From Candidatus Methanomethylicia archaeon (GTDB taxonomy: Archaea; Thermoproteota; Methanomethylicia; CALHIW01): a stretch of DNA of 49,272 nucleotides. How positions within the stretch are numbered: the stretch's first letter is position 1; the number at the start of each line of letters is the position of its first letter. The translations under genes were made by a program, and so were the position numbers. Location of the stretch: assembly GCA_038845975.1 (NCBI GenBank), contig JAWBQF010000019.1, positions 1-49,272 on the forward strand, given 5' to 3'. The notes under the pieces were generated by a model. The model saw nothing but the letters and a program-made list of their open reading frames with translations. It ran no database searches and was not told the DNA's origin. Of the stretch, positions 26,951-49,272 are shown piece after piece.

Positions 26951-26973
26951 TAACTTCACCTATTAAAGTTTAA

Positions 26974-27013
26974 ACTTGTATACTAGAGACTACTTGTATA
27001 CTTACATATAAAT
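26974..27013 (-). promoter_or_regulatory. pdxST promoter: TATA box plus two ACTTGTATAC operator-like sites
   Basis: ACTTGTATACTAG (26974-26986) and ACTTGTATAC (26992-27001). Minus-strand TTTATAT at 27013-27007. Confidence 0.65.
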
Positions 27014-27030
27014 CTTATCCCAACTAGATG

Positions 27031-27753
27031 GGCTTTGTTAACTTTAGATTTATTTGGGAGTTCTCTCCCTTGTTTACGGTGAATCTATGGTTAAAGTTGT
27101 TAAGTTTGTTAGGTAGAGAACTCCATTTACTTTAGTTGTTATGTTGCTTATATATGTTTTCGTTCTTCTAGGATGGCTTCGGATATTTAGTTTTATTGTT
27201 TTAGGTTATGTATCTATATTATTGTGGTTTATCTTAAGCTTCTATTGATTTTGATAGGAGGGATGTTAGGATTTATGTTGATGATACTATTATAAGTGTA
27301 GGTTCTAAGAGTAAGGTTATTTATGTTGTGTTTGAGCCATTATTAAGAAGGATTCTATATGTATGGGTTTGCGATGTTGCAAACATAATTACATCACTAA
27401 AATTCCTTAAAAAGGTTAAAACTACCTATGGTTCTAATATAATTGTATTAAGTGATGGAGCTCATTATTATAAAGCATCATGTAGAATATTAAAATTAAA
27501 ACATGAATTGTATGGTTTAGAGGTTAGAAATCTAATGGAGAGAATAATACAGTATATTAAGGATAGAACTAGATTATTCGATAACTATATACCGTGCATG
27601 AAAAATAAATGCGATAATGAGCATGCATTAATGCTTATGAAGTCAATAGCATACATACTAAACAAACATGGATAAGGAAAATAAAAGCTAAGAATTCATA
27701 GAAGATACAATACCAAAATAGAGGTGATAAAACATGCTTAAGTTAACAAAGCC
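27031..27753 (+). mobile_element. Full-length but degenerate IS6-family element, 723 bp
   Basis: TIR GGCTTTGTTAACTT at both ends and 8-bp TSD ACTAGATG (27023-27030 / 27754-27761). Transposase remnant IYVDDT..., SDGAHYY and RNLMERIIQYIKDRT, with the 5' part broken by stops and frameshifts. Confidence 0.92.
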
Positions 27754-28553
27754 ACTAGATGTAACGTAGTAACTTAAGTTCACCTTTAGATGATTGTAGA
27801 TGAAATGTTATTGTTAAAAGTATAGTTATACTGAATGATGAGTATTCACTATAATTCTCTTACTGAAAGTTTTAATGTATAATGTTTAAGTTATCAAAAG
27901 TTTAGAAAGCTATGATGTACTATCAATAAGAATACTGATTCCCATCACAATACTTTAAACCCCATCGAGAATTCTGATACCATAATATTCCTCATAGAAT
28001 AGGATTTTAACTATCTAATCTATCAATATCTAAGCATAAGCCAACAATCATACCGTTATTCCATACCATATAGAATTCATCCATATTCTTCGATCTCCTA
28101 TGAAAACACAATATATTTTAGAGGTTATCTTCATAAACACTAATATTTAAACAAAGTCTACTATATGAGTTTAAGGCTACAAATAGTATATTAATTCTAA
28201 CTTAGCTACTGAGCCTACTCCTCTTAATGTTACAATGTTACTATTCCAATATTTTCTTAGATTCATCAATAATAATATTTTACTGGTCTCTATTAACTCT
28301 CTAATTTCTAAATTTACTCCACCTATCAAATTCAGCCTTACAATACTCTAAACCTAATTAAACTATCAACAACTCCTAAATAGTATTTACTTTTCAACTT
28401 TAAATATTACACAGTAACCTTAATAGCTTAACATTAGAATCATATTCTTAACCCTGGAATACACTCTACATAGTATATCACTAAATTCACAGTAGAATAT
28501 ATAAAAGGGTAGAGAACTACTTAGAATATTAGGACATAATATCAGTTACAACA

Positions 28554-29246
28554 TTAAAGATATTTAGGATTGCATAGTGTAACCTCTAATATTCTAAATA
28601 TTCCATGATTTCCATACCATTCCCTCTTACCATTAACTATTTGAATGCTCTTCTTAAACATTGGAGCATCAATACAGAATGTTTCAAATTCCCCACCTTC
28701 ACCACAAGGATTAATACCATATTTTAAACTTAGATTTTTTATTTCATTAATACATTTATCATCTATAACTCTACCAAGCCACTTCTCATTAAACCCAAAT
28801 GCAAAAACACCTGTAATTATGCTTTTAATACCGTTTTTCAATTCATCACTTAACACTTTATCAGGTTCCATCCCCCATAACGGAGTTATAGACTTCAAAT
28901 TCAGCTCTCTACATATATTATCAATTCTAGTTTTCTGGTAGTTTGAGCTTATAGCTCCAGATATAACTGCTTCAACACCATATTTTCTCCAAGCATGTCT
29001 TAATGCAAGCCTTAAATCTTTAAGTTCAAATTCCTTAACACCGTAAGTAAATCTACGAATAATAGGTTTACCCATAAGATATGCTTGTAAAGGTACCCAG
29101 TCAATATTTGGATAATGAAACATGTAGGATTCACTAGATAATGGAGATACCACTACAAGACATGATAAATCGAAACCATCTCTTAATCCAATATATATAG
29201 CATATGCTGAATCTTTACCTCCAGAAAATAGAGCTGCACACCTCAT
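28554..29246 (-). CDS. dph6: Diphthine--ammonia ligase
   Basis: LFSGGKDS, SYMFH, GAISSNYQ, PLW and GEGGEFET. Confidence 0.9.
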   Translation of the reverse strand: MRCAALFSGGKDSAYAIYIGLRDGFDLSCLVVVSPLSSESYMFHYPNIDWVPLQAYLMGKPIIRRFTYGVKEFELKDLRLALRHAWRKYGVEAVISGAISSNYQKTRIDNICRELNLKSITPLWGMEPDKVLSDELKNGIKSIITGVFAFGFNEKWLGRVIDDKCINEIKNLSLKYGINPCGEGGEFETFCIDAPMFKKSIQIVNGKREWYGNHGIFRILEVTLCNPKYL

Positions 29247-29489
29247 AACTATTCTTAACCAAACCAGTAGATAAAAGCTACTACTTACGTTTCGGTTAAA
29301 CTCAAAGTCTCTATCTGGGAGAAACTAAGACTCTAACATTTATACATTAACAGTATTACTAATTTCTAATAGCTTAGATGGTATGACTGCAAGTTTAAAA
29401 TATTATTACTTCATCTAGGTCTGCATGACCATAGTATACTGAAAAACTTATATTAAGTAATACTATTTATAACGTAGTTAGTGTCTACT

Positions 29490-30116
29490 ATGAGTAGTAA
29501 ATACGTAGAAATGGAGGAGGTAATTAGAGAGATAGTAAATTGCCGTAAATGTGAATTATGGAGAGCTAGAAATAATCCTGTTCCAGGTGAGGGAAGCTTA
29601 AATGCTGAGGTAATGTTTATTGGTGAAGCCCCGGGATACAATGAAGATATTCAGGGAAGACCATTTGTAGGGGCAGCTGGAAAACTACTTGATACATTAA
29701 TAAGTGAATTCTTAAATCTTACAAGGAGTAATGTATACATAGCTAATGTATTGAAATGTAGACCACCGGGAAATAGAGATCCTCTTCCAGAGGAGGTTGA
29801 ATTATGTACGCCATACTTAGATAGACAGCTACTTATAATAAGACCTAAAGTAATAGTTACTCTAGGAAGACATTCAACAATATATTTAATGCAGAAAGCA
29901 GGAATAAAAGTAGGGGAAATATCGTCGGTTAGAGGTAGACTTTATAGGGTTAATATTTTAGGGTTAAGTATTAATTTAATACCAACATTTCATCCTGCAG
30001 CAGCATTATACAATCCTAAACTTAGAGGAATACTTGAGGAGGATTTTAGAAGGATAAGAGATGCTCTTCAAGTAAGAGGAGTGAAACAACTAGGTATTGA
30101 GGAGTTTCTTAGCTAA
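29490..30116 (+). CDS. udg: Family 4 uracil-DNA glycosylase
   Basis: CRKCEL, GEAPG, GRPFVG, KCRPPGNR and FHPAA. Confidence 0.95.
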   Translation: MSSKYVEMEEVIREIVNCRKCELWRARNNPVPGEGSLNAEVMFIGEAPGYNEDIQGRPFVGAAGKLLDTLISEFLNLTRSNVYIANVLKCRPPGNRDPLPEEVELCTPYLDRQLLIIRPKVIVTLGRHSTIYLMQKAGIKVGEISSVRGRLYRVNILGLSINLIPTFHPAAALYNPKLRGILEEDFRRIRDALQVRGVKQLGIEEFLS

Positions 30117-31429
30117 CTACTAATATTTAGAATTCTAGGAATAATCATTGGCATTAAAATCATTACAACTACTACTAGTGTAATAAAGTATGCTGCCTTT
30201 AACGCAATAATACTTCTCTCCTCAATAGACTTCTTTGAAGATATTTTCCCAAGAATAACCTCAATAGTTTCCTTAACGATTAAACCTCCATCAAGAGGAA
30301 CTATAGGTAAAACATTTGTTAATCCAATCATTAAGTTTAACCAGAAAATCCAGTAAGCAGTATTTAGTAGAGGCCAGAAAATATTTGATGGAATGGGGGT
30401 ACTGTAGAATTCAGGATATGGAGGCTGGATTACTGCTAGCCCTATAAATGGTAGTCTTAAAAGCTCAAGAAAGGATTCTGGAAGAGTACTAAATGGATTA
30501 GCTAGAGAGTATATTATGCTAATCCACCTATTAGCAACACCTAGAAATGGCTTATCTCTATCGCTTTCAACTCCTGTATATTTAAATCTCTCATCAAGTG
30601 TTATATTTAAAATAATCTCAGCTGTACTATTACGAACAAGTAGCTTAACAGTATCGTTAGGCTTAAACCTAGACATTAACTGGAAGAATTCATCCCAGCT
30701 CTTCACGTAATCACTATTAACAGCTACAATCACCATACCGGGTCTAATACCAGCATTATATGCTGGTGAATCCCTAAAAACAGTATCTACAGCAACCCCT
30801 ATAGGAGCAAAGCTAACCATAGATATTGAAGAGGTAAAGATAAGAAGAAATATTAGTGAAGACATTATATTTACTGCTGGTCCCGAAACATAGACTCTAA
30901 CTCTACTAAGTCTTGAAGTCTTCTTTAACTCCTCATCATCAGGCTCAACAAAAGCACCTAGTGGAACAATAAGGAAGAGAATTCCCATAGACTTAATTCT
31001 TATATTACCAACTCTTGAAGCAATTCCATGACTGAATTCATGGAAGAATACAGAGAAGATAAGCCCTACAATACCATACCATAATGGTATGAATGGATTA
31101 ACACCTGGAATACCGATTAGCATTTGAGGTGTTGGAGCAGCGCTTGCAGGAATTCTAAAGCTAGCAATAGCGCTATTAATTATAAGCCATAATGCAATAA
31201 TGAATGATAAAATATAGATAGCTATAAAAATATTCATAGCTATAATCCATGGAAACTTATACCTTGATATTCTATCTATTATCTGATTTCCCCTACTTGT
31301 TTTCAACATTATAAAGGGGCCGTAGAAAGATACATTTCTACACTTACTAAGAAGCTTTTTATAACTAGCAATACTTACCAGTATAGTATATATAATTATT
31401 AGAGTCAGTACAAGCGTTAACAAATCCAT
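30113..31429 (-). CDS. Site-2 protease (M50) with PDZ domain
   Basis: HEFSH, GAFVEP, DSPAYNAGIRPG (PDZ) and NVLPIVPLDGG. Confidence 0.93.
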   Translation of the reverse strand: MDLLTLVLTLIIIYTILVSIASYKKLLSKCRNVSFYGPFIMLKTSRGNQIIDRISRYKFPWIIAMNIFIAIYILSFIIALWLIINSAIASFRIPASAAPTPQMLIGIPGVNPFIPLWYGIVGLIFSVFFHEFSHGIASRVGNIRIKSMGILFLIVPLGAFVEPDDEELKKTSRLSRVRVYVSGPAVNIMSSLIFLLIFTSSISMVSFAPIGVAVDTVFRDSPAYNAGIRPGMVIVAVNSDYVKSWDEFFQLMSRFKPNDTVKLLVRNSTAEIILNITLDERFKYTGVESDRDKPFLGVANRWISIIYSLANPFSTLPESFLELLRLPFIGLAVIQPPYPEFYSTPIPSNIFWPLLNTAYWIFWLNLMIGLTNVLPIVPLDGGLIVKETIEVILGKISSKKSIEERSIIALKAAYFITLVVVVMILMPMIIPRILNISS

Positions 31430-31659
31430 TCAGCCATTCACTTAGCAATCTAGAGAAGCACACTATTAAACTTTATGGTTAGCATGATGTAGTCTATCGA
31501 CTTTAAATGTTAAGTATTGTGTTTCTACTTATACTATAGGTATGTTCATTGTCATGGTTTCTTGTAAAGGTAAGAAAACCATTCATATTTTATGTTATAC
31601 TCTTTACTAACTTCTATTAAATGTAGCTTCAAGTAAATTTAGCTATTAACTGTAGAGAC

Positions 31660-31938
31660 TGTACGTAGATGAATTCATAAACTCAGTGATTTAACATCAT
31701 TTATTCGTATTGGTTAGGAAATGTATGTTGATGAATATAATATCATTTACTATATGATATGGATGATTTAATAGAAAAAGATAGTTTATATTCATTTATC
31801 AGTCTAACATAAAATCTTTTGAGGAATACTTATTCTTCAAAAGATTTTAAGGAGAAGTATACAGTCAATTTCAACCCTAATTGAGACTTATCGGAAAACA
31901 TAGTTGGAGACGGTAAGCATGTCTAAGTTTACAAAGCC
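31660..31938 (+). mobile_element. Eroded IS6 remnant (right end)
   Basis: CATGTCTAAGTTTACAAAGCC ending at 31938 resembles the IS6 right end CATGCTTAAGTTAACAAAGCC. A YVDE-like segment lies near 31660. The left boundary is unresolved. Confidence 0.45.
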
Positions 31939-31992
31939 TCTTAATTTAGTAAAAAATAAATATTAGTGTATGTATTATTATTTCGGTTTTGT

Positions 31993-32226
31993 ATGAGTGT
32001 TCATGCTTACATATTCATACATACTGATACAGGTAGAGCTGTTGAAGTTATGCTTGAAGCTAGGAAAATTGACAAGGTTAAGGAAGCACATGTTATAACT
32101 GGGGTTTACGATGTTATTATTAAAGTTGAAGCTGAAAGCATTGAGGATTTGGAAAATATTGTTATTAAGAAAATACAGGGAATTAAGGGTGTGAGAGGAA
32201 CAGTAACATCGCTTGTAATTCATTAA
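31993..32226 (+). CDS. Stand-alone Lrp/AsnC ligand-binding (RAM) domain protein
   Basis: AYIFI, ITGVYDVIIKV and GVRGTVTSLV. No HTH. Confidence 0.88.
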   Translation: MSVHAYIFIHTDTGRAVEVMLEARKIDKVKEAHVITGVYDVIIKVEAESIEDLENIVIKKIQGIKGVRGTVTSLVIH

Positions 32227-32425
32227 TACACCAGTAGATAAATGCAAGCAGCCTACAATTAAATATTATACTAAATCGTAAACATTTATTCTTTCTATTT
32301 TGTAAATTGAGATATTAATTGATCCAAATCTTCATATACTTTCAACATGGAGATACATATTTACAGCTAAGCTAAATACATAGATGTAAAATATAAGGAT
32401 CTATAGTCTAATATTCTGTGATTAT

Positions 32426-33112
32426 ATGGATAGGCTGGTAGCTGAAAAAATTCTTAAAGCTTTAAGAGTGGAGTTTGAAAAATTTAATGTTGAAGAGTTT
32501 ATAGCGTTAAAGGCTATACAGTCTAAAAACCCATTTCAACTACTTATAGCTGTAGTTCTAAGTCAAAATACAAGTGATAGAAATAGTTTAAAAGCCTTTG
32601 AAAATCTTACTAATAATCTGGTTGATATAACTCCCTGGAAAATTATAGAGACACCAATAGAAAAACTAGAAGAAATCATAAAACCTGCAGGAATCCATAA
32701 AAGAAGAGCTGAAGCATTAAGGAGAATATCGATGGAAATCATTGAGAAATATGATGGAGATCTCAGTAAAATACTTGAACTTCCACCTGAAGAGGCTAGA
32801 AGAGAACTTATGAAGTTACCTCAAGTAGGAGCGAAAACAGCGGATGTTTTAATACTATTCTTAAAGGGGGGATATACAATACCCATAGATACACATTTAA
32901 TGAGAGTGGCAAAGAGGATTGGTTACGCTAATAGTAAAGCAGATTATGAGGAAATCAGAGGAAAACTCATAGATTTATTTAAACCGGAGGAATATCTTGA
33001 AGTACATCTACTACACATACTTCTCGGTAGAAAATACTGTAAAGCTAGAAAACCTAAGTGTAAAGCATGTCCTATAGCAAGATATTGTGAATATGAATTT
33101 AAGGTGCTTTAA
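32426..33112 (+). CDS. nth: Endonuclease III
   Basis: LSQNTSD, HhH LPQVGAKTADV, PIDTH and C-x6-C-x2-C-x5-C. Confidence 0.93.
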   Translation: MDRLVAEKILKALRVEFEKFNVEEFIALKAIQSKNPFQLLIAVVLSQNTSDRNSLKAFENLTNNLVDITPWKIIETPIEKLEEIIKPAGIHKRRAEALRRISMEIIEKYDGDLSKILELPPEEARRELMKLPQVGAKTADVLILFLKGGYTIPIDTHLMRVAKRIGYANSKADYEEIRGKLIDLFKPEEYLEVHLLHILLGRKYCKARKPKCKACPIARYCEYEFKVL

Positions 33113-33411
33113 TGGCTTCCCCATATATTAAAGGTAGAGCGTTTGAACATTATGTTAAACGTAAACTTGAAGCTAGAGAATGGATTGTTACACGTAGTAG
33201 AGGAAGTAGAGGAGTTTTTGATCTATTAGCTGTTAGAAATGGAGAAATAATGCTAATACAGTGTAAATGGAATAACTTCATTGATGAGGAGGAGAGGAGA
33301 AATCTATTAGTTAAGGCATTAAAAGCTGGGGGTATACCAGTATTAGCAACACATATTAACGGTAAAGTTAAACTCATTGATATTAGAAATGGAAAACAGA
33401 TTAAAATCTAG
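33112..33411 (+). CDS. hjc: Hjc-like PD-(D/E)xK nuclease (Holliday junction resolvase family)
   Basis: KGRAFE, RSRGS, FDLLA and IQCK. TAATG overlap with nth. Confidence 0.75.
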   Translation: MASPYIKGRAFEHYVKRKLEAREWIVTRSRGSRGVFDLLAVRNGEIMLIQCKWNNFIDEEERRNLLVKALKAGGIPVLATHINGKVKLIDIRNGKQIKI

Positions 33412-33492
33412 CAGTAACGTACTATATCTATTTTAAGTTGCTCCACTATAACCTACATGGACAATTATAATACCTACAAGTTAAAAATCAAA

Positions 33493-34605
33493 CTAATCCT
33501 TAAATCCACTAACTAGTGGAATTATAAGTAATGCTAGAAAGCCAATTATAATGTATGATAGTTCAGGATTAAAAATATCTGCTACCATACCATTTAGTAA
33601 AGGACCTATTGTAAAGCCAAAGCCAAAAATCGCTTCATAAAGTCCAACTCCAAAACCAAGACCTCTTAAAGGTAATCTATTTGAAATCATGTTAAGAGTT
33701 AATGGGAAAAATGATCCTAAGGAAAATCCAAGCATAAATAATGAAATAATAAATATAGAAGTTCTAGGAAGTAAACCTATAAGCATCATTGATCCAAACA
33801 TAAGTAGTGATATGATAAGTAGAAGTTTAGATAGATTAAATTTAGCGATGTATGGTGTAAGATAGTAAGAAATCATTCTAGCTAGTCCGAAAATAGTAAA
33901 TAATACACCTATTTGAAATTCGTTTAATCCATGTAGATTAGCATATCCGGGAAAAATGTAGACAGTAGATGCGTAAACCATACTATATGGAATGATTGAA
34001 CAATATATTCTAGTAAGACTAAGATTAAAGCCAAGTCCACTACTATGTAAAGTCCTTATGGACCTATATCTTCCACTAATCATAACAACAAGTATTGTAG
34101 ATAATACGATTATCAAGCATGAAAACATGAACAAGTCTTTAAGATTTAAAAACTGTGTTAAAACACCACCTATAAGTGGGCCTATAAGGAAGGCTGAAGA
34201 CCATGAAATATTATACTGACTATATGCTCTAATCCTCTCTTCAGAATCATTAATTTCAGAAAGAATGGTTTCGGCAATAGGCCAGAAGAAGGATATACCA
34301 ATACCTCCAAGTATCTGAGCAACATATATGTATGTTAATGTTTTTGAAAACGATAAGATAAGCATCGATAATGAGTTTACAGCTATACTAATAAAATATA
34401 TGAAAATCCTATTAAGTCTATCTGAAAAGTAGCCTGCAACTAGGGGTATTACCATGTAGGGTAATGAGCGGGTAAGACCTAAAAATCCGAGATCAGAATA
34501 GGATGCACCGAAATACTGAGCGTAAATCGGTATCATATACATACTCATTGCAAGACCTAGTGAAACCACAAATACTGAAGCATTTAAATAATGAATCCAA
34601 GACAT
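33493..34605 (-). CDS. MFS transporter
   Basis: About 12 TM helices. Motif A (GYFSDRLNR) and GPLIGG. Confidence 0.9.
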   Translation of the reverse strand: MSWIHYLNASVFVVSLGLAMSMYMIPIYAQYFGASYSDLGFLGLTRSLPYMVIPLVAGYFSDRLNRIFIYFISIAVNSLSMLILSFSKTLTYIYVAQILGGIGISFFWPIAETILSEINDSEERIRAYSQYNISWSSAFLIGPLIGGVLTQFLNLKDLFMFSCLIIVLSTILVVMISGRYRSIRTLHSSGLGFNLSLTRIYCSIIPYSMVYASTVYIFPGYANLHGLNEFQIGVLFTIFGLARMISYYLTPYIAKFNLSKLLLIISLLMFGSMMLIGLLPRTSIFIISLFMLGFSLGSFFPLTLNMISNRLPLRGLGFGVGLYEAIFGFGFTIGPLLNGMVADIFNPELSYIIIGFLALLIIPLVSGFKD

Positions 34606-34707
34606 ACCATTACTAATTAAGCTAAAACCATACTGTTAAACTTTACTATAGCTGTACATTAATGAGTAGATTTATAATCCCTGTAGAATAAATAATTTAG
34701 TGATGTT

Positions 34708-35940: not shown

Positions 35941-35943
35941 AAT

Positions 35944-37320: not shown

Positions 37321-37636
37321 AAAATACTAAGTTGGAGCATTTATTTAAAGATTTAAATTCTACTAGTAAATGGCTGCTTCAGCGATTTCTAATATGGATT
37401 AAATCTTTAAGTATTAGAATATTTCAGTTGTACTAAGTATGTGTTGTAGGACTAACTAAATATAAACAGATAATCCAGGAGTTCGCCGATTACCTATTTG
37501 AAGATATTATCCTCTAAAATCATGGTTGATTAAGTGAAGAGATTTTAATAGTATTATCTTAATGTAAGCATTTAATGAGTTGACTAGGAAGGTTAAATGG
37601 GGTAATACCGAATTTTAAGTCTAAAAATAATTAATA

Positions 37637-38170: not shown

Positions 38171-38298
38171 AACATATTTTAAGCAAAGCTTTTAATAAGC
38201 TTTACCTAGATTAAAATATCTAATCAATCTAGTACTCCACTACACTATTAGAATATTTAAGGTTAGCATAATACTATATATGTGACTGGAGGATTAAT

Positions 38299-41200: not shown

Positions 41201-41409
41201 CTATAGGTATAAATAGGGAAGTAACAATAGGAGATTTAAGGTTTGAAGTTGAAAACTCAATAAGGAAAATATCTGAAACCCCTCCAGGTGAATGGAAGAA
41301 ATATACAAAATATCTTAGAGAAAAACTTAAAAAACACCAACTAGAAAACTGTAAATCAACATATATTCTTTATCTCGTAATGGAAGAATATAAAAGAACT
41401 CTAAATTAG
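38299..41409 (+). CDS. SF2 helicase, Hrq1/MrfA/SftH-like, with C-terminal extension
   Basis: LYKHQLEA, GTGSGKT, YPTLALANDQ, ITNP, motif II DDID, TAT, QGIDIG and QREGRKGR. Confidence 0.88.
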   Translation: MNRRLDSSLILKGLGFEYYSYTEERVSPPLTNVSFRDLIPEFNGLPICNSLLYKHQLEAYNHLSSGKNIILKSGTGSGKTEAWLLYTFKHRITTMVIYPTLALANDQIRRINEYSRILNYKAMAIDSMRRTELVKIHGRSKLRSTLSIQNILITNPAFLMHEIKKIATYSKGILLDGFISRMELLVIDDIDFYGPREIALLLSLIKILILISERKFQIATLTATIENPEELARFLNSINNRETIIVSGLPFRVENRVYVVLGRNLKALWEKLKLERSRLIREGVGEDILKALDNYSIFKEQYYKVIEVAQALNINIGSLEVDPLEIIQQYINDSGVTLIFTKSIARAEEIARRLRNNLPDSLKDCIAAHHHLLLRDLRRRIEDEARVGKIKILISPRTLSQGIDIGDIVRIVHVGLPESLREFYQREGRKGRRGSIEFSETVILPGSRWDRDILSRGVESLRSWLQLPLEKVIINPKNKYIMLFEALLKYISPKFKHKLSLEEYKFLEDMNIIHNGELTVKGRETWINLNFYEFAPPYGINRAMISDNGEHYLEEISHCDLVEKFQPGCIDYTSDGIITEHRIGGRTGRTVTAVVEEKISEKTLWKRDQLAQALEEYEEAKIKWGEEPSITRDYAHGRIHSEVICVVYPPRKGFGRYIKIPNRVIWRVISSKPRIKRINDKTLTFRDYKTILVPTATYGKYSDFTYGSLYELEPDENLTLLRIGLALVMVVLRKKLRIPFETIMYDLGKIGEKKLMSLHEPESAGLIESIDWLNIRRIIEEYRPEDLDEVLIKLFDEYAYSDLITQGFNWEQIKRAALKAIDYILVKERIPIKFKDLELTIPKPSKALRKASIDINYIPLIEDANTGLISIGLFNGEDEVSIVIDRDFSHLEDTYQLDIEVSKIVNEDYTVLVYDWNSILKALLNSGLKTLNLILKSLHLEGKIIDVKKNIIETLNIQPAPLEEVEKAIGINREVTIGDLRFEVENSIRKISETPPGEWKKYTKYLREKLKKHQLENCKSTYILYLVMEEYKRTLN

Positions 41410-41439
41410 CAATCAACATTCCACTATAAATATTTAATT

Positions 41440-42138
41440 CTACTTTAGCATTTCATCAACTCTATCAGGATACCCTACATATATACGCTTAGCAAGACCT
41501 ACAAATAAACCACATTCAACAACGCCAGCTATAGAATTTATTCTATATTCTAACTCTTCAGGATCATTTATTACACCAAAGTAGGCGTCAACTATAAAGT
41601 TTCCATTATCAGTTACTATTGGGCCATCCTTATACTCCCCCCCACTTCTTAAATATGGTTTACCGTTAAGCTTCTCAATTTTCTTCATAACATAACGCCA
41701 AGCATACGGAAGAACCTCAATTGGTACGGGTTTCTTCTCACCAATTTTACTTGAAAGCTTACTATAATCCACTATTACAATATATTCCTTAGCCATAGAT
41801 GCTACTACCTTCTCCCTTGTTAGGGCTGCACCACCACCCTTTATTAAGACCATTCTACTATCAACTTCATCAGCTCCATCAACAGCTAAATCTATACAGC
41901 TAAACGATTCAAGGGGGAGTACATTTAAGCCAAAATCTACAGCTAAATGTTCAGATTGATAAGAGGTAGCTACACATTTAATATTTAAACCAGTACTCTT
42001 AACCATTTTTGCTAGAAGCTCAATAAATACCGCTACTGTTGATCCTGTACCAAGACCCAAAACAATACCATTCTTTACATGGTTTAAAGCTTTCTGAGCG
42101 GCTTGAAACCTACAAATATCTAACATATTCACAACCAT
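41440..42138 (-). CDS. rpiA: Ribose-5-phosphate isomerase A
   Basis: GLGTGST, DGADEVD, IKGGGAALTREK and TDNGN. Confidence 0.97.
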   Translation of the reverse strand: MVVNMLDICRFQAAQKALNHVKNGIVLGLGTGSTVAVFIELLAKMVKSTGLNIKCVATSYQSEHLAVDFGLNVLPLESFSCIDLAVDGADEVDSRMVLIKGGGAALTREKVVASMAKEYIVIVDYSKLSSKIGEKKPVPIEVLPYAWRYVMKKIEKLNGKPYLRSGGEYKDGPIVTDNGNFIVDAYFGVINDPEELEYRINSIAGVVECGLFVGLAKRIYVGYPDRVDEMLK

Positions 42139-42256
42139 ACTTAAACATACAGATATATATGTTTGGTTCTGTAAACTTAGATGAGGTAACGGAAATATTA
42201 AAAAATCATTACAATGGAAGATAACTAATAGCTTAAATTTACAAGATGCTTATAAA

Positions 42257-43534
42257 TTATAGAGAGCTACTAACTGAACCGTATGGGGAGCCGTACTTTT
42301 TAACGTTTTCAATAATTTGCCTAATACTTTCAGGTATTAGTTTAATACTATGTAGATTCTCTCTAAGTTTAAGAACCATTTTTGGGGTATCTATGTTCAT
42401 TGGACATTTAACCTTACATCTTCCACATAAAGTACATGTAAACGCTATTAGAGATGCATAGTTAAGCTCTCTATCTATAAAGGCTGTCCATATAGCTCCT
42501 ATTCCTCCAAAATATGTATATCCAAAGTTACCTGCTACAATTTGATATATTGGACACTCGTAAAGACATGCCCCACATCTTATACAGTATAGTGCTTGAC
42601 GGAATAACGAATCTTTAGCAACTTCACTCCTACCATTATCTAGAAGTATAATATGAACTTCTCTTGGTCCATGTACACCTAAAACCTGTGTCTTCTCAAT
42701 ATCGCCGGTTTTGCTTGGACCGGAAATTATTGAAACAAAACTTGGCATATAGTAGCTTGCATATCTACTTACAACCTCAACTAACATTGTTGCATCAATA
42801 AGTGTTGGAAGAATTTTCTCTAACCCAGCAATAACAACGTATTTTGGAGGTGCATTAGAAACATATCTTACATTTCCCTCATTCTCAATAAGTACTATAG
42901 ATCCTGTATTTGCAACAATAGCATTAGCACCGCTTATTCCAATATCTGCTTTAAAGAATTTATCTCTCAAAAAGCTTCTAGCAAACATAGTTAACTTAGG
43001 TATATCTGGTTGTAGGTTTTCACCAGATATCTTTGAGAACAATTCAGCAACCTTCTCCTTAGGAACATGAATTGCTGGACTTAAAATATGCATTGGCTTC
43101 GAACCTAAAAGCTGTATTATTAGCTCGCCAAGATCAGTTTCATAAATAGTGTTTCCCTTAAGCTCAAGATAGTGGTTTAAATTCAGCTCTTCAGATGTTA
43201 TCGACTTAGACTTTACAATCACCTTATCTGATCCAACAATTTCATCTAAAATCTTCAATACATCACCAGCACTTCTAGCATAGTATGCATAGCTATTATT
43301 AGACTCTATAGACTCCATTGTTTGCTTAACATAGCTATTAAGATTTGATAAAACATGTTCCTTAACCTCTATAAGCTTTAAACGCTTATCCTCAACATCA
43401 CTATATCGTTTAAGAGCTTTATCCCTATTAATCCTGAAGGAGTCAACAGCTCTCCTTAAAGCAGTTCTAATAAAGCTATTATCCATAGCCTCATAGAGTC
43501 TTAGCTTATAAGTCTGGAAAACATCATCAAGCAT
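42257..43534 (-). CDS. LutB/LldF-family LUD-domain iron-sulfur protein
   Basis: KSKSITSEE, ETDLGE, ENEGN, GPSKTGDIE, CIRCGACLYECP and CTLCGRCKVKCP. Confidence 0.88.
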   Translation of the reverse strand: MLDDVFQTYKLRLYEAMDNSFIRTALRRAVDSFRINRDKALKRYSDVEDKRLKLIEVKEHVLSNLNSYVKQTMESIESNNSYAYYARSAGDVLKILDEIVGSDKVIVKSKSITSEELNLNHYLELKGNTIYETDLGELIIQLLGSKPMHILSPAIHVPKEKVAELFSKISGENLQPDIPKLTMFARSFLRDKFFKADIGISGANAIVANTGSIVLIENEGNVRYVSNAPPKYVVIAGLEKILPTLIDATMLVEVVSRYASYYMPSFVSIISGPSKTGDIEKTQVLGVHGPREVHIILLDNGRSEVAKDSLFRQALYCIRCGACLYECPIYQIVAGNFGYTYFGGIGAIWTAFIDRELNYASLIAFTCTLCGRCKVKCPMNIDTPKMVLKLRENLHSIKLIPESIRQIIENVKKYGSPYGSVSSSL

Positions 43535-44214
43535 TATAAGACACCTAAAGCCATACCTAATACATGAATAATATCATACACCCTAATATTTAGACTATAA
43601 ATTGAGGAAGAATCTTTAAAGTTAAGATAGCAGAAAGGACAGGAGGAAACTATGGCATCAACATCTTGAGGAATCTCTCTTAAAATCTTTTCATAAGCAA
43701 CTTCAACAGCTAAACTTGGAAAGACAGCTTTAACCAATCCTCCACCACCACAACATGTTGAAGATCCCCTATTAAGTCTAAATTCGAAGAGAGTTAATCC
43801 AGGTATTCTCTTCAATAATTCCCTAGGCTCCTCAGTAACCCCACAATGTATAAGTTCACATGGATCATGATATATAGCCTTTAAATTAACCTTACATGGA
43901 AAACTACTAAGCCCTAAATCCAAAATAAACTGTGATAAATGCTTAACCATGAAGCCACTATAGTGCTCTCTAAAAACCCTAAAACATCCAGCACAACTAG
44001 TAATCAATACCGATACATTTCTGAAGTGGTCAGTATTACTCTTAATAACTTCTCTAAAACCTTCACTATCCCCTGAAAGAAGTAGGGGCATACCACAACA
44101 TCTACTACCTAAATCAATCCATTCAATACCTAAATACTCTAAAATCCTAATTAACGGTTCCTTTAACTCACTACTATACTTCTCCAGGGTGCATCCTGGG
44201 AATACAGCAAACAT
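43534..44214 (-). CDS. CCG-domain Fe-S protein (LutA/HdrD/GlcF-like)
   Basis: FPGC, CCG, SCAGC, YHDPC, CCGGGG and SCPFC. Probable ATG at 44214; TAATG overlap with the LutB-like gene. Confidence 0.85.
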   Translation of the reverse strand: MFAVFPGCTLEKYSSELKEPLIRILEYLGIEWIDLGSRCCGMPLLLSGDSEGFREVIKSNTDHFRNVSVLITSCAGCFRVFREHYSGFMVKHLSQFILDLGLSSFPCKVNLKAIYHDPCELIHCGVTEEPRELLKRIPGLTLFEFRLNRGSSTCCGGGGLVKAVFPSLAVEVAYEKILREIPQDVDAIVSSCPFCYLNFKDSSSIYSLNIRVYDIIHVLGMALGVL

Positions 44215-44338
44215 TTCAAATCCTATCCATCTCAGCAGGACATACTTATAAACACTCCTATAACAACTAGGTAAAAAATTCAAATTTGGCATGCATAAAT
44301 GTATAAATTACATTTTGAATGATTTAGAAGTATGGAAA

Positions 44339-45715
44339 TCATAGAATACTTTTAAATCTATCTTTATACTCAACATATTTCTTAATTGCTATTAGAGATT
44401 TAGCAGCATCTTCAGGCATGAAGTATACAGGTATTTTAGCTTCTCCAAGCCTCCTAAAAGCCTCCTCAATATCACTTCTCATAAAACTCCAGACAATAAT
44501 AAAGGGTTTCCAAACATCATTCTTTAACCTTATCATCAAATCTGTAAACTCACCAACTCTAAAAAGCCCTGGAGCACCTATAATAACAGCATCTACATTA
44601 TCATCCTCCATAACTATTTTCACACATTCACTATAAAGCTTAATATCTTCAACAACCGCAAGCGTCATATCTATAGGATTTGAAACACTAGCAAACCATG
44701 GTAGAGCTTCTCTTAGCCTTCTCCTTGTCTCCATACATAGCTCAGGTATTTTAAACCCTACAGCTTCACATGAATCAACAATACTTACACCAATACCTCC
44801 AGGACCTGTAACTACACCAATATTGACTCCTCTAAAATCTGGAATTGTTAATGAAGCTATAATGTAGTTTACAAGATCTCTTAAGCTATAAGCTCTTATA
44901 GCGCCTACCTGCTTGAAAACAGCATTATATATCTCATCAGAGCCAGCAAGAGCACCAGTATGTGAGTAAACAGCCTTTTTACCTGACTCATGTATTCCAG
45001 CCTTCCATAAAACTAGAGGCTTTAAAAATGAAGTCCTCTTAGCAACATCAATAAATCTTCTAGGACTTCTTATCTGCTCAACATATCCTCCAATAACACG
45101 TGTTGTATCATCACTTTCGAAATATTCAAGATAGTCTACAAATTTTAAGTCACATTCATTACCTGAACTTACAATCTTTGATAGTCCGTAGCCTCTACTA
45201 GATAGTAAGGATGCAAAGGCAATACCTAATCCTCCACTCTGAGATATAAATGATGTTTCACCTTTAATTCTCGGTAGATTTGGATCATACGATATTCCAG
45301 AGTATGAACAGTAAATACCCATACAATTCGGACCTATAATTCTAGTACTGGATCCACAAATGGCTTTAACAAGTTCAGCCTCTAGAGCAGCTCCCTCACT
45401 ACTAGCTTCACTAAAACCAGCAGTTACAATAACAACTCCCTTAACCCCTTTTAAAACACAAGCCTTAACAGAATCTAAAACCATATGTGTAGGTATTGTA
45501 ATAATAGCTAAATCAATACTTTCAGGTATGCTTAAAACATTTGAATAACATTTAAACCCTAAGATTTCACTATAGTTTGGATTAACAGGATATATTTTTC
45601 CATTAAAGTTAGATTCGATTAAAGCCTTCAAAGCAATGTTTCCAGGCTTACCAGGATTTGAGGAAGCTCCAATAACAGCAATACTCTCCGGGTAGAATAT
45701 TGGATTGAGATCCAT
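44339..45715 (-). CDS. acdA: ADP-forming acetate/acyl-CoA ligase alpha subunit
   Basis: AVIGAS, TAGFSE, GPNCMG, SQSGG, SHTGALAG (phospho-His) and NPIDM. Confidence 0.9.
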   Translation of the reverse strand: MDLNPIFYPESIAVIGASSNPGKPGNIALKALIESNFNGKIYPVNPNYSEILGFKCYSNVLSIPESIDLAIITIPTHMVLDSVKACVLKGVKGVVIVTAGFSEASSEGAALEAELVKAICGSSTRIIGPNCMGIYCSYSGISYDPNLPRIKGETSFISQSGGLGIAFASLLSSRGYGLSKIVSSGNECDLKFVDYLEYFESDDTTRVIGGYVEQIRSPRRFIDVAKRTSFLKPLVLWKAGIHESGKKAVYSHTGALAGSDEIYNAVFKQVGAIRAYSLRDLVNYIIASLTIPDFRGVNIGVVTGPGGIGVSIVDSCEAVGFKIPELCMETRRRLREALPWFASVSNPIDMTLAVVEDIKLYSECVKIVMEDDNVDAVIIGAPGLFRVGEFTDLMIRLKNDVWKPFIIVWSFMRSDIEEAFRRLGEAKIPVYFMPEDAAKSLIAIKKYVEYKDRFKSIL

Positions 45716-45804
45716 ATTAATACACTAACAGCATCTGTAGAAATAGTTAATAAATCTTAACATAGCATATTAAGCTATTTATAAATATAGCTAAACTTAA
45801 TATA

Positions 45805-46485
45805 CTAAACTGTTAGGGCTTTGGGACAATATGTATTGAATAGATATATTATTAGAAAGGCTGTTAATGGAACTGTTACATTATCATCTATAAACCTCCA
45901 CTCAAAATGCTCAATAACACTACATATAATACTTGCAATAATGCCAGCGTAGCCAAATACAGCTCCAATTGGTAGAGTTACTGTAAGCATTGCTAAATTA
46001 CCCCACCAAGATTTAGTTCTCCTTTTAAAAAGCATATTTCTAACAATTCCAGTAACACCATCACCGACAGCCATAAAAAGTACTGGAACAATACCGAACC
46101 AGTAATTTCTAAAAACAATCCATGCTAACGCTATTGTTAAGCCCCATGTAATGCAGAAATGAACTTCATAAACGTTATCTCTAGTTTGAAACCAGTAAAA
46201 TAGCTTACCCCTTCTATGTGGGAGATAGGTAAATACAGCTAAAACTATTGAGAATATAAATGGTAGTATAGGTGTTGTGAAGAGATAAGGTACAAGAACA
46301 GCTACTAAAGCACCAGTAAGAATATGTATAAGCTTCCTATTATAGTATACAGCAACGCTATGTGAAACCCTACCTACAATAGCTTCATAAAACCTCTTCG
46401 ATACTAGTAAAACCACAGCAGCAACCCAAACAAACAGTATTACTGCATAGAGCAACTCGTAAATTAAGCTAGTAAATATATTCAT
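45805..46485 (-). CDS. Dolichol/phytol kinase-like (CTP-dependent polyprenol kinase family) membrane protein
   Basis: RKLIH, GDGVTGIV, KSWWG and DDNVTVP. Confidence 0.8.
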   Translation of the reverse strand: MNIFTSLIYELLYAVILFVWVAAVVLLVSKRFYEAIVGRVSHSVAVYYNRKLIHILTGALVAVLVPYLFTTPILPFIFSIVLAVFTYLPHRRGKLFYWFQTRDNVYEVHFCITWGLTIALAWIVFRNYWFGIVPVLFMAVGDGVTGIVRNMLFKRRTKSWWGNLAMLTVTLPIGAVFGYAGIIASIICSVIEHFEWRFIDDNVTVPLTAFLIIYLFNTYCPKALTV

Positions 46486-46579
46486 GCATTAATAAAACTA
46501 AAGGAGTTAAATAAATTTAACATTTAAAAGTTAACTAGATATTAGTTAACAATAAATAATTGTATTTTATAGTAAACTT

Positions 46580-47104
46580 ATGACTTTAAAGTCTAGATAT
46601 GTATATAGAGGTAAAATCATTAATGTTAGAGTAGATGAATTTGAAACTGTTAGTAAACAATATATGAAGGAAATAGTTGAGCATCCTGGAGCAGTAGCAA
46701 TTATACCAATTTTAGATAGTGGAAAAATCATAATGATTAAGCAATATAGATATGCTGTTAAACGTGAACTTATTGAAGTTCCAGCAGGAACAATAGAGAA
46801 TGGAGAGAAACCTGAGGAATGTGCCTATAGAGAGCTAATAGAGGAAACAGGTTACATTGCGGGTGAAATATTTAAAATCGCTGAATTCTACCTTGCACCT
46901 GGATATAGTGAGGAAGTTTTACATCTATTCATAGCTAGGAAGCTTGTAAAAGGGGGAGCTAAACCAGAAATAGGTGAAAAAATAGAGAGTGTAATGGCCA
47001 TTAGTCTTAATGAGGCTATTGAGATGGTGAGGAGGGGAGAAATAAGGGATGCAAAAACAATATGTGCACTATACTACTTACTACTAAACAAATTTAAACA
47101 TTAG
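46580..47104 (+). CDS. Nudix hydrolase (ADP-ribose pyrophosphatase-like)
   Basis: HPGAV, QYRY and Nudix box GTIENGEKPEECAYRELIEETG. Confidence 0.92.
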   Translation: MTLKSRYVYRGKIINVRVDEFETVSKQYMKEIVEHPGAVAIIPILDSGKIIMIKQYRYAVKRELIEVPAGTIENGEKPEECAYRELIEETGYIAGEIFKIAEFYLAPGYSEEVLHLFIARKLVKGGAKPEIGEKIESVMAISLNEAIEMVRRGEIRDAKTICALYYLLLNKFKH

Positions 47105-48122
47105 TGAACTCTACCACCTTATATAGCTGCTCTTCCAACTGATTATTGAGATTTAAAATTTCACCATTAATCCTCTTCACTACCCTAATATTGGGGTTAT
47201 CTATTAGCTCACCTATTATTGATGACTCAATACCCTCATCCATTAAATCCTTAACAATAGATTCAGCATAATTCCTTTTCGCAGCTATCAAAAGAGCTCC
47301 AGACCCTATAAGCATAAGTGGATCTATTTTAAGAGCTTTACATATTTCAGCTGTTTCACGCTTTATTATCATTTTATCTTCATAAGCTATAACTCCAAGA
47401 TTAGATGCTAAAGCCATCTCCTGAATACATGTAGCAACACCTCCTTCAGTAACATCATGCATCGCCGTAACCCCACCAGAACCTACAGCTTTCAGGGCCT
47501 CCTTAACAACACTTATATAGTTGAAGAATGTTTTCCCGTTTTCAACAATATCTAGACCGATAAGATTTTTCAACTTATATTCAAGCTCATAAGATAATAT
47601 AGCTGTTCCCTCAATTCCACATCCCTTCGTTAGTATAAGCTTATCTCCAGCTCTACCACCACCAGTTTTAACAAAGTTTTTTCTCAATCCTTCACCAATA
47701 ACAGTACATATAATTACTGGTCTTGAAAACCCTAATGTAACCTCAGTATGCCCACCGATTACTGTTAAACCTATGTACCTGCATGCACGATCAATATCCC
47801 TCATTATGTCCTCAAGATCACTAAGTAAGCATCCTTCAGGTAGAAGTAACGTTAGTGAAAGCCAACGTGGACTAATACCTCTAGAAGCTATATCATTAGC
47901 AGCTATATTAACAGCAAGCCACCCAATATGTTTAACAGCACCAGTTATAGGATCACTATGTACAGCAAGAACATGGTCACCAAGATCAATTATGGCTGCA
48001 TCTTCACCAATAGATGGACCAACAAGAACTCTATAATCTTCAACTCCAAGATACTTATAGACAACATCTCTAATAATATTTAGTGGTGGCTTACCAATAC
48101 TTAACCTCAAGTAAAACACCAT
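47094..48122 (-). CDS. AIR-synthase-related protein (PurM/ThiL/HypE/SelD fold)
   Basis: GPSIGEDAA, HSDPITG, NDIA, GGHTE, HDVTEGG and GSGALL. Confidence 0.85.
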   Translation of the reverse strand: MVFYLRLSIGKPPLNIIRDVVYKYLGVEDYRVLVGPSIGEDAAIIDLGDHVLAVHSDPITGAVKHIGWLAVNIAANDIASRGISPRWLSLTLLLPEGCLLSDLEDIMRDIDRACRYIGLTVIGGHTEVTLGFSRPVIICTVIGEGLRKNFVKTGGGRAGDKLILTKGCGIEGTAILSYELEYKLKNLIGLDIVENGKTFFNYISVVKEALKAVGSGGVTAMHDVTEGGVATCIQEMALASNLGVIAYEDKMIIKRETAEICKALKIDPLMLIGSGALLIAAKRNYAESIVKDLMDEGIESSIIGELIDNPNIRVVKRINGEILNLNNQLEEQLYKVVEFTNV

Positions 48123-48868
48123 TAACCCGCTTTCAAAGCCCTTATTAAAGGTTTTGAAAATATTACAGCTATAGATAATCCAACTATTACTTGAGCTATA
48201 TTAAATGGAACTTCTACAATAGAGGCCCATCCATATCCTAAAATATAGAACTCATAGAGGAAGTAGCCTAAAACCATTAATGAACCACCAACTAGGCAGC
48301 TAAGAACTATAACCCATGTTACAGGTTCAATGTTAAACCCAAGATACAGAAGAGCTAGAAATATGGCTATTGAAAGCATAAGCCATGCATACCATGGAAA
48401 GCTAAGGCTTAAAGTTGATAATGGCTGAACTACTCCAAAACCTAAACTGTTAAAGTTAAGCTCCAATACATCACCATAATAGATTAAGCTTGCTGTAAGA
48501 AGTACTAGTGATGGAATAATTGAAAACGTAAACACAACAGTTCGATGAGAAACTTTACTTAGCGATTTAAGCTTCACATAAATTAATCCAGCAATAAAAC
48601 CCTCAACAGATTTAATTATAAAAGTACCTGGAGCAAAATAGTAATATCCTGAAAATACATCAGCTAAAAATGAGCCGAAACCACCAGCAAACCCACCTAA
48701 ATATGGTCCAAGAAGAATCGCGGATAGATAAACCATAGCTTCACCAACATTAAAATATCCTTTAGTTGCTGGAATATATATCTGAATAGTTAATGTTAAA
48801 ATCATAGTTAAAGCAGCAAACAGAGCTACTAGGGATATTTTTAATGTTTTCCTCAACTCAAACCCCAA
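48122..48868 (-). CDS. ECF transporter S component (HmpT/PdxU-like N-terminal motif)
   Basis: ALFAAL, IPATKGYFNVGE, GGFGSFLAD, APGTFIIK and NIAQ. TAATG overlap with the downstream gene. Confidence 0.85.
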   Translation of the reverse strand: MGFELRKTLKISLVALFAALTMILTLTIQIYIPATKGYFNVGEAMVYLSAILLGPYLGGFAGGFGSFLADVFSGYYYFAPGTFIIKSVEGFIAGLIYVKLKSLSKVSHRTVVFTFSIIPSLVLLTASLIYYGDVLELNFNSLGFGVVQPLSTLSLSFPWYAWLMLSIAIFLALLYLGFNIEPVTWVIVLSCLVGGSLMVLGYFLYEFYILGYGWASIVEVPFNIAQVIVGLSIAVIFSKPLIRALKAG

Positions 48869-48900
48869 CTTGTATACAAGTACAAGCTTAAATATCTTTT
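48868..48900 (-). promoter_or_regulatory. Promoter with a perfect 14-bp palindromic operator
   Basis: ACTTGTATACAAGT (48868-48881) lies between the minus-strand AAAAGATA-TTTAAG (BRE/TATA-like, 48900-48887) and the TTG start. Confidence 0.65.
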
Positions 48901-49069
48901 GTCAACCAGTAGACTAGTTCATAGCTATTCTGTTTAATCACTAAGATACTAGAAAGCAGTATCTATATTGTGACTTAGGTTCATCAGCTATATATGCTTT
49001 CACATCTAGAGTTCGTAGAGTTGTAGTACCGGTATTAAAGCTTTTAAGCTTTAGTATCTAGGTAACTAT

Positions 49070-49137
49070 GGTTAAACCCAATGAATTAAGGGTACGCTGC
49101 TGAAAAATGATGAGTTAGCCCTTTAATGAGGGTAACT
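49070..49137 (+). ncRNA. Candidate C/D box sRNA
   Basis: Degenerate C box (ATGAATT), 12-nt guide, CTGA (49100-49103), ATGATGA (49107-49113), 12-nt guide, ATGA. Terminal ACCC/GGGT stem and an upstream TTTTAA near 49042. Confidence 0.4.
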
Positions 49138-49164
49138 CTGCATTAATTAAAATAGATAAAGATG

Positions 49165-49272
49165 GGCTTTGTTAACTTAATCATGTTTTATTACCTCTAT
49201 TTTGGTATTGTATCTTCTATGAATTCTTAGCTTTTATTTTCCTTATCCATGTTTGTTTAGTATGTATATTAT
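49165..49272 (-). mobile_element. IS6-family element, right-end fragment (cut by window end)
   Basis: Begins GGCTTTGTTAACTTAA and is a near-exact reverse complement of about 27646-27753. Confidence 0.88.

Follow-up and report, generated by a model that had tools for sequence, protein, structure and literature searches.

A candidate PadR-type vitamin B6 operator linking pdxST to a predicted B6-vitamer transporter gene in a Methanomethylicia archaeon

The subject of this study is a DNA element in the 49,272-nt contig JAWBQF010000019.1 of a Candidatus Methanomethylicia archaeon (assembly GCA_038845975.1); the whole contig is referred to as the window. The window carries the pyridoxal 5'-phosphate (PLP) synthase genes pdxST and a gene for an energy-coupling factor (ECF)-type S component, predicted to transport B6 vitamers, and the promoters of both share an inverted-repeat element that recurs at S-component promoters of distant archaea. 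On balance we favour the reading that this is the operator of a PadR-type vitamin B6 regulon, bound at both promoters by a fusion protein that joins a threonine synthase (ThrC)-like domain, devoid of the Schiff-base lysine, to a PadR winged helix and reports B6. A reading made from the sequence alone had proposed a single repressor, encoded outside the window, for co-control of B6 synthesis and uptake; comparative evidence supports the core of that idea, short of proof.

Results

A repeated word at two promoters

The genome (G000; 2.77 Mb, 33.7% G+C, 76 contigs, 93% complete) includes the window as contig C19. The 10-mer ACTTGTATAC occurs on the plus strand at 26974-26983 and 26992-27001, and again at 48868-48877 (plus) and 48872-48881 (minus), where the two copies together form the perfect palindrome ACTTGTATACAAGT. 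Both sites lie upstream of minus-strand genes, namely pdxS and the gene of the PF07155 S component. The coordinates, the pair 18 bp apart and the palindrome at 48868-48881 had been noted in the sequence-only reading and were exact on recount; a scan also bore out that the window contains no further copies. The four matches compare with 0.12 expected, and four were reached by 0 of 100 dinucleotide shuffles.

The sequence-only reading had further proposed a genome-wide scan, and the outcome was divided. The 10-mer is found eight times on both strands of the genome for ~11 expected from base composition, hence without over-representation; three of the four copies outside the two promoters are inside open reading frames (ORFs) and the fourth is in an extended non-coding region rich in AT. 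Nor is it unusual in G000 for a local pair of 10-mers to have a further, distant copy between genes (33 k-mer rows), and because such cases are common, bare word-sharing is weak evidence. Among these k-mers, the distant copy is doubled to a palindrome for ACTTGTATAC only, and the perfect 14-mer ACTTGTATACAAGT is single-copy in the whole genome. A genome scan with up to three mismatches for other operons carrying it, such as that of an autoregulated transcription-factor gene, returned 176 matches (64 of them 'intergenic' by a crude gene call), none of which was convincing. Significance therefore rests on the arrangement and on comparative data, namely the conservation of a longer element in relatives, and not on the shared word alone.

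The element and its position

The features of the two promoters are as follows; scores out of 16 refer to the specified positions of the ideal palindrome, and G001 is a sister genome.

25392..26012, minus strand: pdxT, glutaminase subunit, 12 nt after pdxS (TIGR03800, 217.6 bits, cut-off 105.55; equivalog)
26024..26950, minus strand: pdxS, PLP synthase lyase subunit (NF003215, 494.9 bits, cut-off 395; equivalog; PF01680)
26961..26982, minus strand: pdxS-proximal putative operator copy TATACAAG-TTTAAA-CTTTAATA in gene orientation; 14/16
26979..27000, minus strand: pdxS-distal putative operator copy TATACAAG-TAGTCT-CTAGTATA; 15/16
27006..27013, minus strand: TATA-like box of pdxST, ATTTATAT in gene orientation; promoter assigned by position only
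48122..48868, minus strand: ECF-type S component, predicted B6-vitamer transporter (PF07155, 98.9 bits, cut-off 26.7)
48855..48876, minus strand: weak proximal copy TATACAAG-TTGGGG-TTTGAGTT; 12/16 (13/16 in G001)
48868..48881, no strand: palindrome ACTTGTATACAAGT, the putative junction CTTGTA/TACAAG of two overlapping operator copies
48873..48894, minus strand: distal putative operator copy of the S component, TATTTAAG-CTTGTA-CTTGTATA; 14/16, four mismatches to the pdxS 22-mer
48888..48895, minus strand: TATA-like box ATATTTAA upstream of the S component; assigned by position

The functional unit is probably an element of 22 bp and not the 14-bp palindrome. It consists of two arms of 6-8 bp, with the 6-bp cores TACAAG and CTTGTA, and a 6-bp spacer. 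All of the sites fit TAT[AT][CA]AAG-N6-CTT[GT][AT]ATA, often as two copies that overlap by 2-4 bp. In G001, whose S component is 93% identical, both arms of the better copy are intact and both local substitutions fall within the 6-bp spacer. Because G001 changes the first base of the palindrome but keeps the arms, the 8-6-8 model is favoured over the 14-bp palindrome. The earlier proposal of the palindrome as operator is thus upheld as regards a shared site and amended as regards its unit, the palindrome being probably the junction of two copies of the 22-bp element.

The ATG of pdxS is at 26950, with GGTGA ahead of it at 26956-26960. The proximal copy, which includes the first 10-mer (26974-26983) and ends just before GGTGA, reads TATACAAGTTTAAACTTTAATA in gene orientation. 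The distal copy overlaps it by 4 bp, begins 6 nt past the TATA box and includes most of the second 10-mer (26992-27001); the 18-bp period of the direct repeat corresponds to the distance between the two left arms. Together, the pdxST copies extend from just past the TATA box into the leader and span the expected transcription start. At the S-component promoter, the left arm of the copy at 48873-48894 overlies the TATA-like box at 48888-48895.

The element recurs at S-component promoters of distant archaea

The pdxS 22-mer (26961-26982) was scanned over 1.30 Mb of collected loci, with copies of this genome set aside. All four matches with up to three mismatches precede an S-component gene by no more than 75 nt. 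These are in a metagenome-assembled genome (MAG) of Baldrarchaeota (L114; one mismatch, 62 nt before the S component), a second Baldrarchaeota MAG (L125; two mismatches, 50 nt before), Bathyarchaeota (L083; two mismatches, at the S-component start) and an Asgardarchaeum (L142; three mismatches, the match itself a perfect palindrome, 10 nt ahead of the S component). Matches with four mismatches are the site at 48873-48894, the same place in G001 and the S-component upstream sites in L104 and L114, together with a single non-promoter match in L137.

A second scan covered the whole genomes of L114, L125, L083 and L142 as well as that of L104 (~10.8 Mb). All matches with up to three mismatches were these promoter sites, and the reversed-pattern control gave 0. 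The promoter matches number five, of which two, at contig ends of a single genome, are probably one and the same site. In G066, the fifth genome, no site reaches this threshold; the sites there have four mismatches.

Identity to the G000 proteins is ~40% for the S component, 41-47% for the candidate regulator described below and 75% for PdxS (L114), and the DNA flanking the element is not conserved across lineages. Since the flanks are unconserved and the proteins only ~40-47% identical (PdxS excepted), the match points to constraint on the element and not to shared regional ancestry. Conservation upstream of S-component orthologues, proposed in the sequence-only reading as a check, was thus found in four distant archaea and in G001. 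The palindromes in families f2, f3, f6 and f7 were also considered as back-to-back TATA boxes, an explanation that was dropped, as most fit the 8-6-8 frame with different arms.

Link to vitamin B6

The distribution of both gene products was determined in 62 species genomes of Methanomethylicia, with the S component counted as present at E < 1e-30 (orthologue level). PdxS is found in 20 genomes and the S component in 40; PdxS only occurs in 16, the S component only in 36, both in four (G000 among them) and neither in six, the completeness of which is 45, 59, 85, 85, 92 and 93%. This alternation is a descriptive pattern among related genomes and recurs in at least three families.

The S component is predicted to be a B6-vitamer transporter. 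Its sole sequence match in the PDB is 4HZU_S (HmpT/PdxU2; E 8e-12), and four of the six HmpT-conserved residues are identical (E43, Y202, N223, Q226), two being changed (H84 to K86 and Q87 to E89). It shares PF07155 with PdxU2/HmpT (4HZU chain S), and differs from it by an extra insertion of ~90 residues, probably membrane-embedded, and by the lack of EcfA and EcfT in its operon. PF07155 is given as the Pfam family of PdxU and PdxU2/HmpT in PMC9997740, and HmpT has been reported as a pyridoxamine carrier (PMC4860826). Riboflavin is a poor fit as substrate: 6,7-dimethyl-8-ribityllumazine (DMRL) synthase is present in 7 of the 62 genomes, and 17 genomes lack both this enzyme and the S component. 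Thiamine or its precursor hydroxymethylpyrimidine (HMP) has a poor phyletic fit, ThiC and the S component occurring together in 15 genomes. As a separate observation, PF00885 (DMRL synthase) had no match in the 93%-complete G000, and members of the class may often be auxotrophic for riboflavin.

In the Baldrarchaeota MAG L114 the S component, pdxS and pdxT stand in one row behind the element (Pfam-confirmed). On sequence grounds, the element is therewith tied to pdxST in two unrelated lineages, this genome and L114. Ahead of the row (L114:1-2442) the element is present in two overlapping copies, and the locus resembles the regulon condensed into a single operon.

A different perfect palindrome, ATTGAACGTTCAAT, stands beside the TATA box in the pdxS promoters of two Methanomethylicaceae genera (L049-L051; G045, G055, G056). 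It is not common to the S-component promoter in G045, G055 and G056, and a copy with one mismatch lies upstream of a CoA-transferase-like ORF (named from sequence reading) in two genomes. This suggests a separate regulator in those genera.

A threonine-synthase-like/PadR fusion as candidate regulator

A search with the S-component alignment, using one genome per species, yielded 80 loci from Methanomethylicia, Bathyarchaeia, Nitrososphaeria, Thermofilaceae, Brockarchaeota, Korarchaeia-like and Asgard MAGs. At 15 of these, a fusion gene of ~460-575 codons with PF00291 and PF03551 lies within 4 kb of the S component; at 10 loci it is immediately divergent from it, and one further copy is cut by a contig end. 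In the Pfam domain order, the PF00291 PLP-dependent enzyme domain is followed by a C-terminal PF03551 PadR winged helix. The copy of G000 is:

C1:65933-67348: ThrC-like/PadR fusion, 471 aa (PALP, 5e-66; PadR, 40.3 bits, cut-off 27, residues 398-460)

PF03551 scored 37.4-44.6 bits in the fusions of six relatives, and the G001 fusion is 86% identical to the G000 copy. A full-length fusion is encoded by all five genomes that carry the element at the S-component promoter (41-47% identical; Pfam-confirmed). Within the class, the fusion turned up solely in families with such palindromes at their S-component promoters. Families f4 and f5 and genus g3 gave only unfused ThrC-like matches, and no such palindromes were found in the S-component promoters of f4 or in the pdxS promoters of f5, g3, g11 and g21.

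The Schiff-base lysine of the NPTGSF-K-DR motif is present in 5/5 unfused ThrC-like proteins and in 0/24 fused ones. The G000 fusion has Arg107 at this position; the unfused ThrC-like protein of the same genome (C1:92673-93818) keeps the lysine. The Gly-rich loops and the GN motif, which we take to contact PLP in ThrC structures, are kept in the fused proteins. An AlphaFold2 model of the fusion has a predicted local distance difference test (pLDDT) score of 89 and a predicted template modelling (pTM) score of 0.79, with a low-confidence linker at 374-392. The top PDB matches of the model are the threonine synthases 2ZSJ, 6NMX, 2D1F and 1UIM, with TM scores of 0.84-0.86 (target-normalised) and 33-39% identity. 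Given that the Schiff-base lysine is missing despite the ThrC fold, we do not regard the fusion as a threonine synthase. All of the best 120 homologues listed have PadR and PALP domains, and their source names, where given, are almost always 'threonine synthase', once 'transcriptional regulator'. As none of the 24 fused proteins examined has the catalytic lysine, the family is probably misannotated systematically.

Homodimer prediction gave a score of 0.76, against 0.00 for the best of three controls, with the contact in the ThrC-like domain. Among proteins solved as one-chain pairs, 20 of 30 reach the mark applied; among those solved as single chains, 1 of 23 does. At least 45% of the contacts are common to the runs, and the pLDDT of the partner is at least 84. 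The pass may merely reflect likeness to solved ThrC dimers.

A regulator of the GntR or MocR type had been anticipated in the sequence-only reading, which proposed a search for such a protein co-occurring with the site. None exceeds the cut-off: the best PF00392 match in the genome reaches 22.7 bits for a cut-off of 27, and the PadR-type fusion is the better candidate. GntR, MocR and PdxR were consequently rejected for the candidate, which has PF03551, PF00291 and a threonine-synthase fold. MocR regulators are described as 'not present in Archaea' in PMC5320631.

Two variants of the gene were seen. In family f6 (Culex-named MAGs; G020, G023, G029, G032) the fusion matches hold one or two in-frame TAA codons, which may mean that sensor and DNA-binding domain are encoded separately there, or that the gene is broken. 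In family f2 (G002:C1:590891-592752; G005:C112; G014:C4; G026:C43) the fusion adjoins a second, paralogous PF07155-like gene, and not the pair formed by the S component and its neighbour described below.

Fit to the PadR family

In the B. subtilis PadR operator, CNTGNA-N6-TNCANG, a 6-bp spacer separates two palindromic repeats of 6 bp each, and the family signature comprises two tyrosines at the starts of helices alpha2 and alpha3 and a basic wing residue (Tyr20, Tyr42 and Lys67; both from PMC5728393). The element described here has the same hexamers, CNTGNA and TNCANG, but in swapped order, and the same 6-bp spacing. In the fusion family, Tyr410 and Tyr426 are invariant in 38 sequences and are situated at the starts of the model helices 409-416 and 422-434, and R445-R446-K447 precede the wing strand; this mapping to B. 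subtilis PadR residues was made by position only. The residue three before the alpha3 tyrosine is Gln in all seven genomes with TA[CTA]AAG arms (G000, G001, G062-G066). In most of the 13 subgroup-ii fusions it is Pro, and six Pro loci carry TATAGG arms in the same 8-6-8 frame. Unlike PadR family members such as B. subtilis PadR and LmrR, the candidate would sense its ligand with an entire domain of enzymatic origin that precedes the winged helix. Further differences are the predicted dimer contact within the sensor domain, the archaeal lineage and the vitamin genes predicted as targets.

Neighbouring genes and other features of the window

Downstream of the S component lies a further gene:

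47094..48122, minus strand: AIR (aminoimidazole ribonucleotide)-synthase-related gene of the PurM superfamily; below the HypE, ThiL and SelD cut-offs

Its start overlaps the stop of the S-component gene, and the two are therefore regarded as one operon. Neither EcfA nor EcfT is found in this operon, the AIR-synthase-like gene being followed by a convergent NUDIX gene; EcfT-like genes are on other contigs, C24 and C6. The locus, termed an ECF-transporter operon in the sequence-only reading, is thus better described as an S component with an AIR-synthase-like gene. The two genes are adjacent at 9 of 29 class loci and at 18 of the 80 loci, from several archaeal phyla. The AIR-synthase-like gene is present in 48 of the 62 class genomes, some of which lack the S component; in family f4 it lies ~7 kb from the S component. 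Identity with ThiL, PurM or PurL was ruled out, since separate genes match those. The C-terminus of the protein is without cysteine; HypE has a C-terminal cysteine. A role as missing pyridoxal kinase was rejected because there is no clean gap, a ThiD/PdxK-family gene being present in 59 of the 62 genomes. Speculatively, the protein may catalyse an ATP-dependent step of vitamer salvage.

No RNA families or tRNAs were detected in the window (no Rfam match). Some 180-250 nt ahead of the S component, a stretch of ~70 nt (49060-49130) is almost unchanged in G001, whereas the DNA nearby differs. It has ATGATGA and CTGA words, as in C/D-box RNAs, without an Rfam match.

The ends of a multi-copy IS6-like element (insertion sequence; terminal repeat GGGCTTTGTTAAC, 19 such ends in the genome) flank both promoters at 27027-27400 and 49161-49272, and the ORF at 27328-27675 has a weak IS6 transposase match. 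The depth of sequencing run X12 jumps at 27031 from ~24 to >1000. A 98%-identical contig from this run ceases to match at 27030, so that the insertion ~17 nt upstream of the pdxS TATA box is strain-specific.

Discussion

The analysis in silico establishes the element with its conservation and position, the linkage of transporter, pdxST and regulator genes, the domain composition of the fusion and its missing lysine. In the mechanism that we infer, for binding protein, ligand and direction of control alike, the element would be bound by a dimeric factor encoded at C1:65933-67348 and composed of an N-terminal zinc ribbon, a ThrC fold with arginine in place of lysine, a flexible linker and a C-terminal PadR winged helix. 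The ThrC-like domains would hold the dimer together, and the two PadR domains would contact the two arms, the centres of which are 12 bp apart. The lysine-less pocket would bind PLP or another B6 vitamer reversibly and thereby report the free B6 pool. With B6 plentiful, the liganded dimer would occupy the operators. It would compete with TATA-binding protein (TBP) and transcription factor B (TFB) at the S-component promoter and block polymerase recruitment or escape at pdxST, so that de novo PLP synthesis and uptake would both be shut off. Co-repression was preferred as the direction of control since the genes targeted serve synthesis and uptake and the sites coincide in part with core promoter elements.

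Several observations weigh against this proposal. With a 16-position model, eight windows scoring at least 15/16 lie upstream of S components and 0 among 537,176 background windows, a count that is partly circular, the model having been refined on some of the counted sites; the clean test is the locus scan with the unrefined 22-mer. On the degenerate model G000 has ten matches of at least 15/16, only three of which are in the two promoters, four being intragenic and three in other intergenic places. The weak copy at 48855-48876 has a poor right arm, runs into the ORF start and is doubtful as a stand-alone site. The other three class genomes with both PdxS and S component (G045, G055, G056) have no shared motif, and their matches to the regulator query are unfused ThrC-like proteins only. 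Loss of the lysine could abolish PLP binding and leave some other ligand. In G000 the fusion gene is on a contig other than that of both targets, with no element found upstream of it, and the hexamer order in the element is swapped relative to the solved B. subtilis PadR operator.

The three other intergenic sites with 15/16 (G000 C2:10496-10517, C70:2314-2335 and C29:28290-28311) are just upstream of ORFs of 132, 366 and 201 aa, respectively. These could be further regulon members or chance matches in AT-rich DNA.

Among the points that count against the proposal is also the state of comparison at the pdxS promoter. No diverged sister promoter was found; PdxS was not detected in G001, which is 62% complete. 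Contigs from the sequencing runs X12 and X17 are ~98% identical, with no listed change at 26943-27030, which says little. A metagenome scan for PdxS gave, among the matches listed, at least two identical copies, the rest having at most 88% identity and unrelated promoters, and may have missed relatives. Among the matches listed, reads and metagenomes thus supplied only strains 98-100% identical or unrelated lineages. The word GTATAC was found within 420 nt upstream of pdxS in none of 14 distinct class relatives; pdxS promoters of the class were discarded for comparison as too distant and, where checked, without the fusion regulator.

The unlinked fusion gene and the swapped hexamers would also suit a genuine B6 operator that is bound by a different transcription factor, the fusion neighbouring the S component for some other reason or acting elsewhere. 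The fusion gene is outside the 4-kb flanks in L114, L125 and L083 as well, and its binding to the operator is a prediction. We nevertheless hold this unlikely: all five element-bearing genomes encode the fusion, families without it also lack such palindromes, the residue at the recognition helix varies with the arm sequence, and hexamers and 6-bp spacing are PadR-like. Somewhat less likely again is a fusion that regulates in response to O-phosphohomoserine, threonine or an amino acid-PLP adduct and so couples B6 supply to amino-acid status. Its sensor descends from threonine synthase, with the active-site frame largely retained except for the lysine, without which the affinity for PLP is uncertain. 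The only targets found, though, are the PdxU/HmpT-like transporter and pdxST, and no threonine-pathway gene with the element was seen among the matches listed.

Action at the RNA level, by a 5'-leader hairpin resembling an attenuator or riboswitch, appears very improbable to us. The palindromic copies do fold as hairpins in silico (z = -6.1 in L142 and -2.9 in the S-component region), and the proximal pdxS copy is probably within the leader. The stronger S-component copy, on the other hand, covers the TATA box and should lie upstream of the transcript. Moreover, the folds differ between loci without a common structure, the 38-nt pdxS leader has z = -0.16 against shuffles, and the spacer varies freely with the arms kept and no Rfam match in the window. 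Least credible of all is the chance occurrence of an AT-rich word in two promoters of no common function. The near-chance frequency of the 10-mer and the 33 rows of comparable local repeats would be in keeping with it, but four distant lineages of phylum rank have the 22-mer at the orthologous promoter and at no other place in their genomes.

The preferred reading, a B6 operator bound by the lysine-less ThrC-like/PadR fusion, has counterparts in design. In archaea, ThiR (vitamin B1) and RbkR (vitamin B2) combine a sensor derived from a pathway enzyme with a DNA-binding domain and control synthesis and transporter genes. The candidate differs from them in its domains and its vitamin, and in that its sensor comes from a vitamin-using enzyme and not from an enzyme of the pathway itself. 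The bacterial PdxR regulators (MocR group of the GntR regulators) likewise unite a PLP-enzyme-like sensor with a winged helix and act on operators of repeated boxes. Their reconstructed regulon includes pdxST and the S component pdxU, and PdxR is mainly an activator of pdxST with PLP as anti-activator (PMC5320631). The parts are unrelated, however: PdxR has a fold-type-I aminotransferase as sensor and an N-terminal GntR domain, whereas the candidate has a threonine synthase of fold type II (PF00291) and a C-terminal PadR domain (PF03551). The Schiff-base lysine is lost only on the archaeal side of this comparison, and the operator positions suggest repression where PdxR mainly activates.

No publication on an archaeal B6 regulator, a ThrC-PadR fusion or the pair of AIR-synthase-like gene and S component was found in a search that lay outside most subscription journals; this agrees with the sequence-only reading, which knew of no described B6 regulator in archaea. 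The novelty lies in the parts, the domain of life and the operator, the design principle being already known. Whether the lysine-less ThrC/PadR proteins are a large, so far unrecognised family of general B6 sensor-regulators of Thermoproteota and Asgard archaea working through the 8-6-8 operator at PdxU-like transporter genes and pdxST, with the AIR-synthase-like protein as a possible ATP-dependent salvage enzyme, seems to us evenly balanced.

B6 transporters have been termed a major gap in the field (PMC9997740). If the proposal is true, a defined operator, a candidate sensor-regulator and a candidate transporter would form a testable triad. The lysine-less ThrC fold would predict reversible, non-covalent binding of PLP, and the distribution of the S component would predict B6 auxotrophy in uncultivated lineages. 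A widespread misannotation as 'threonine synthase' would be corrected, and a second, independent B6 sensor would have evolved from a PLP enzyme and a winged helix.

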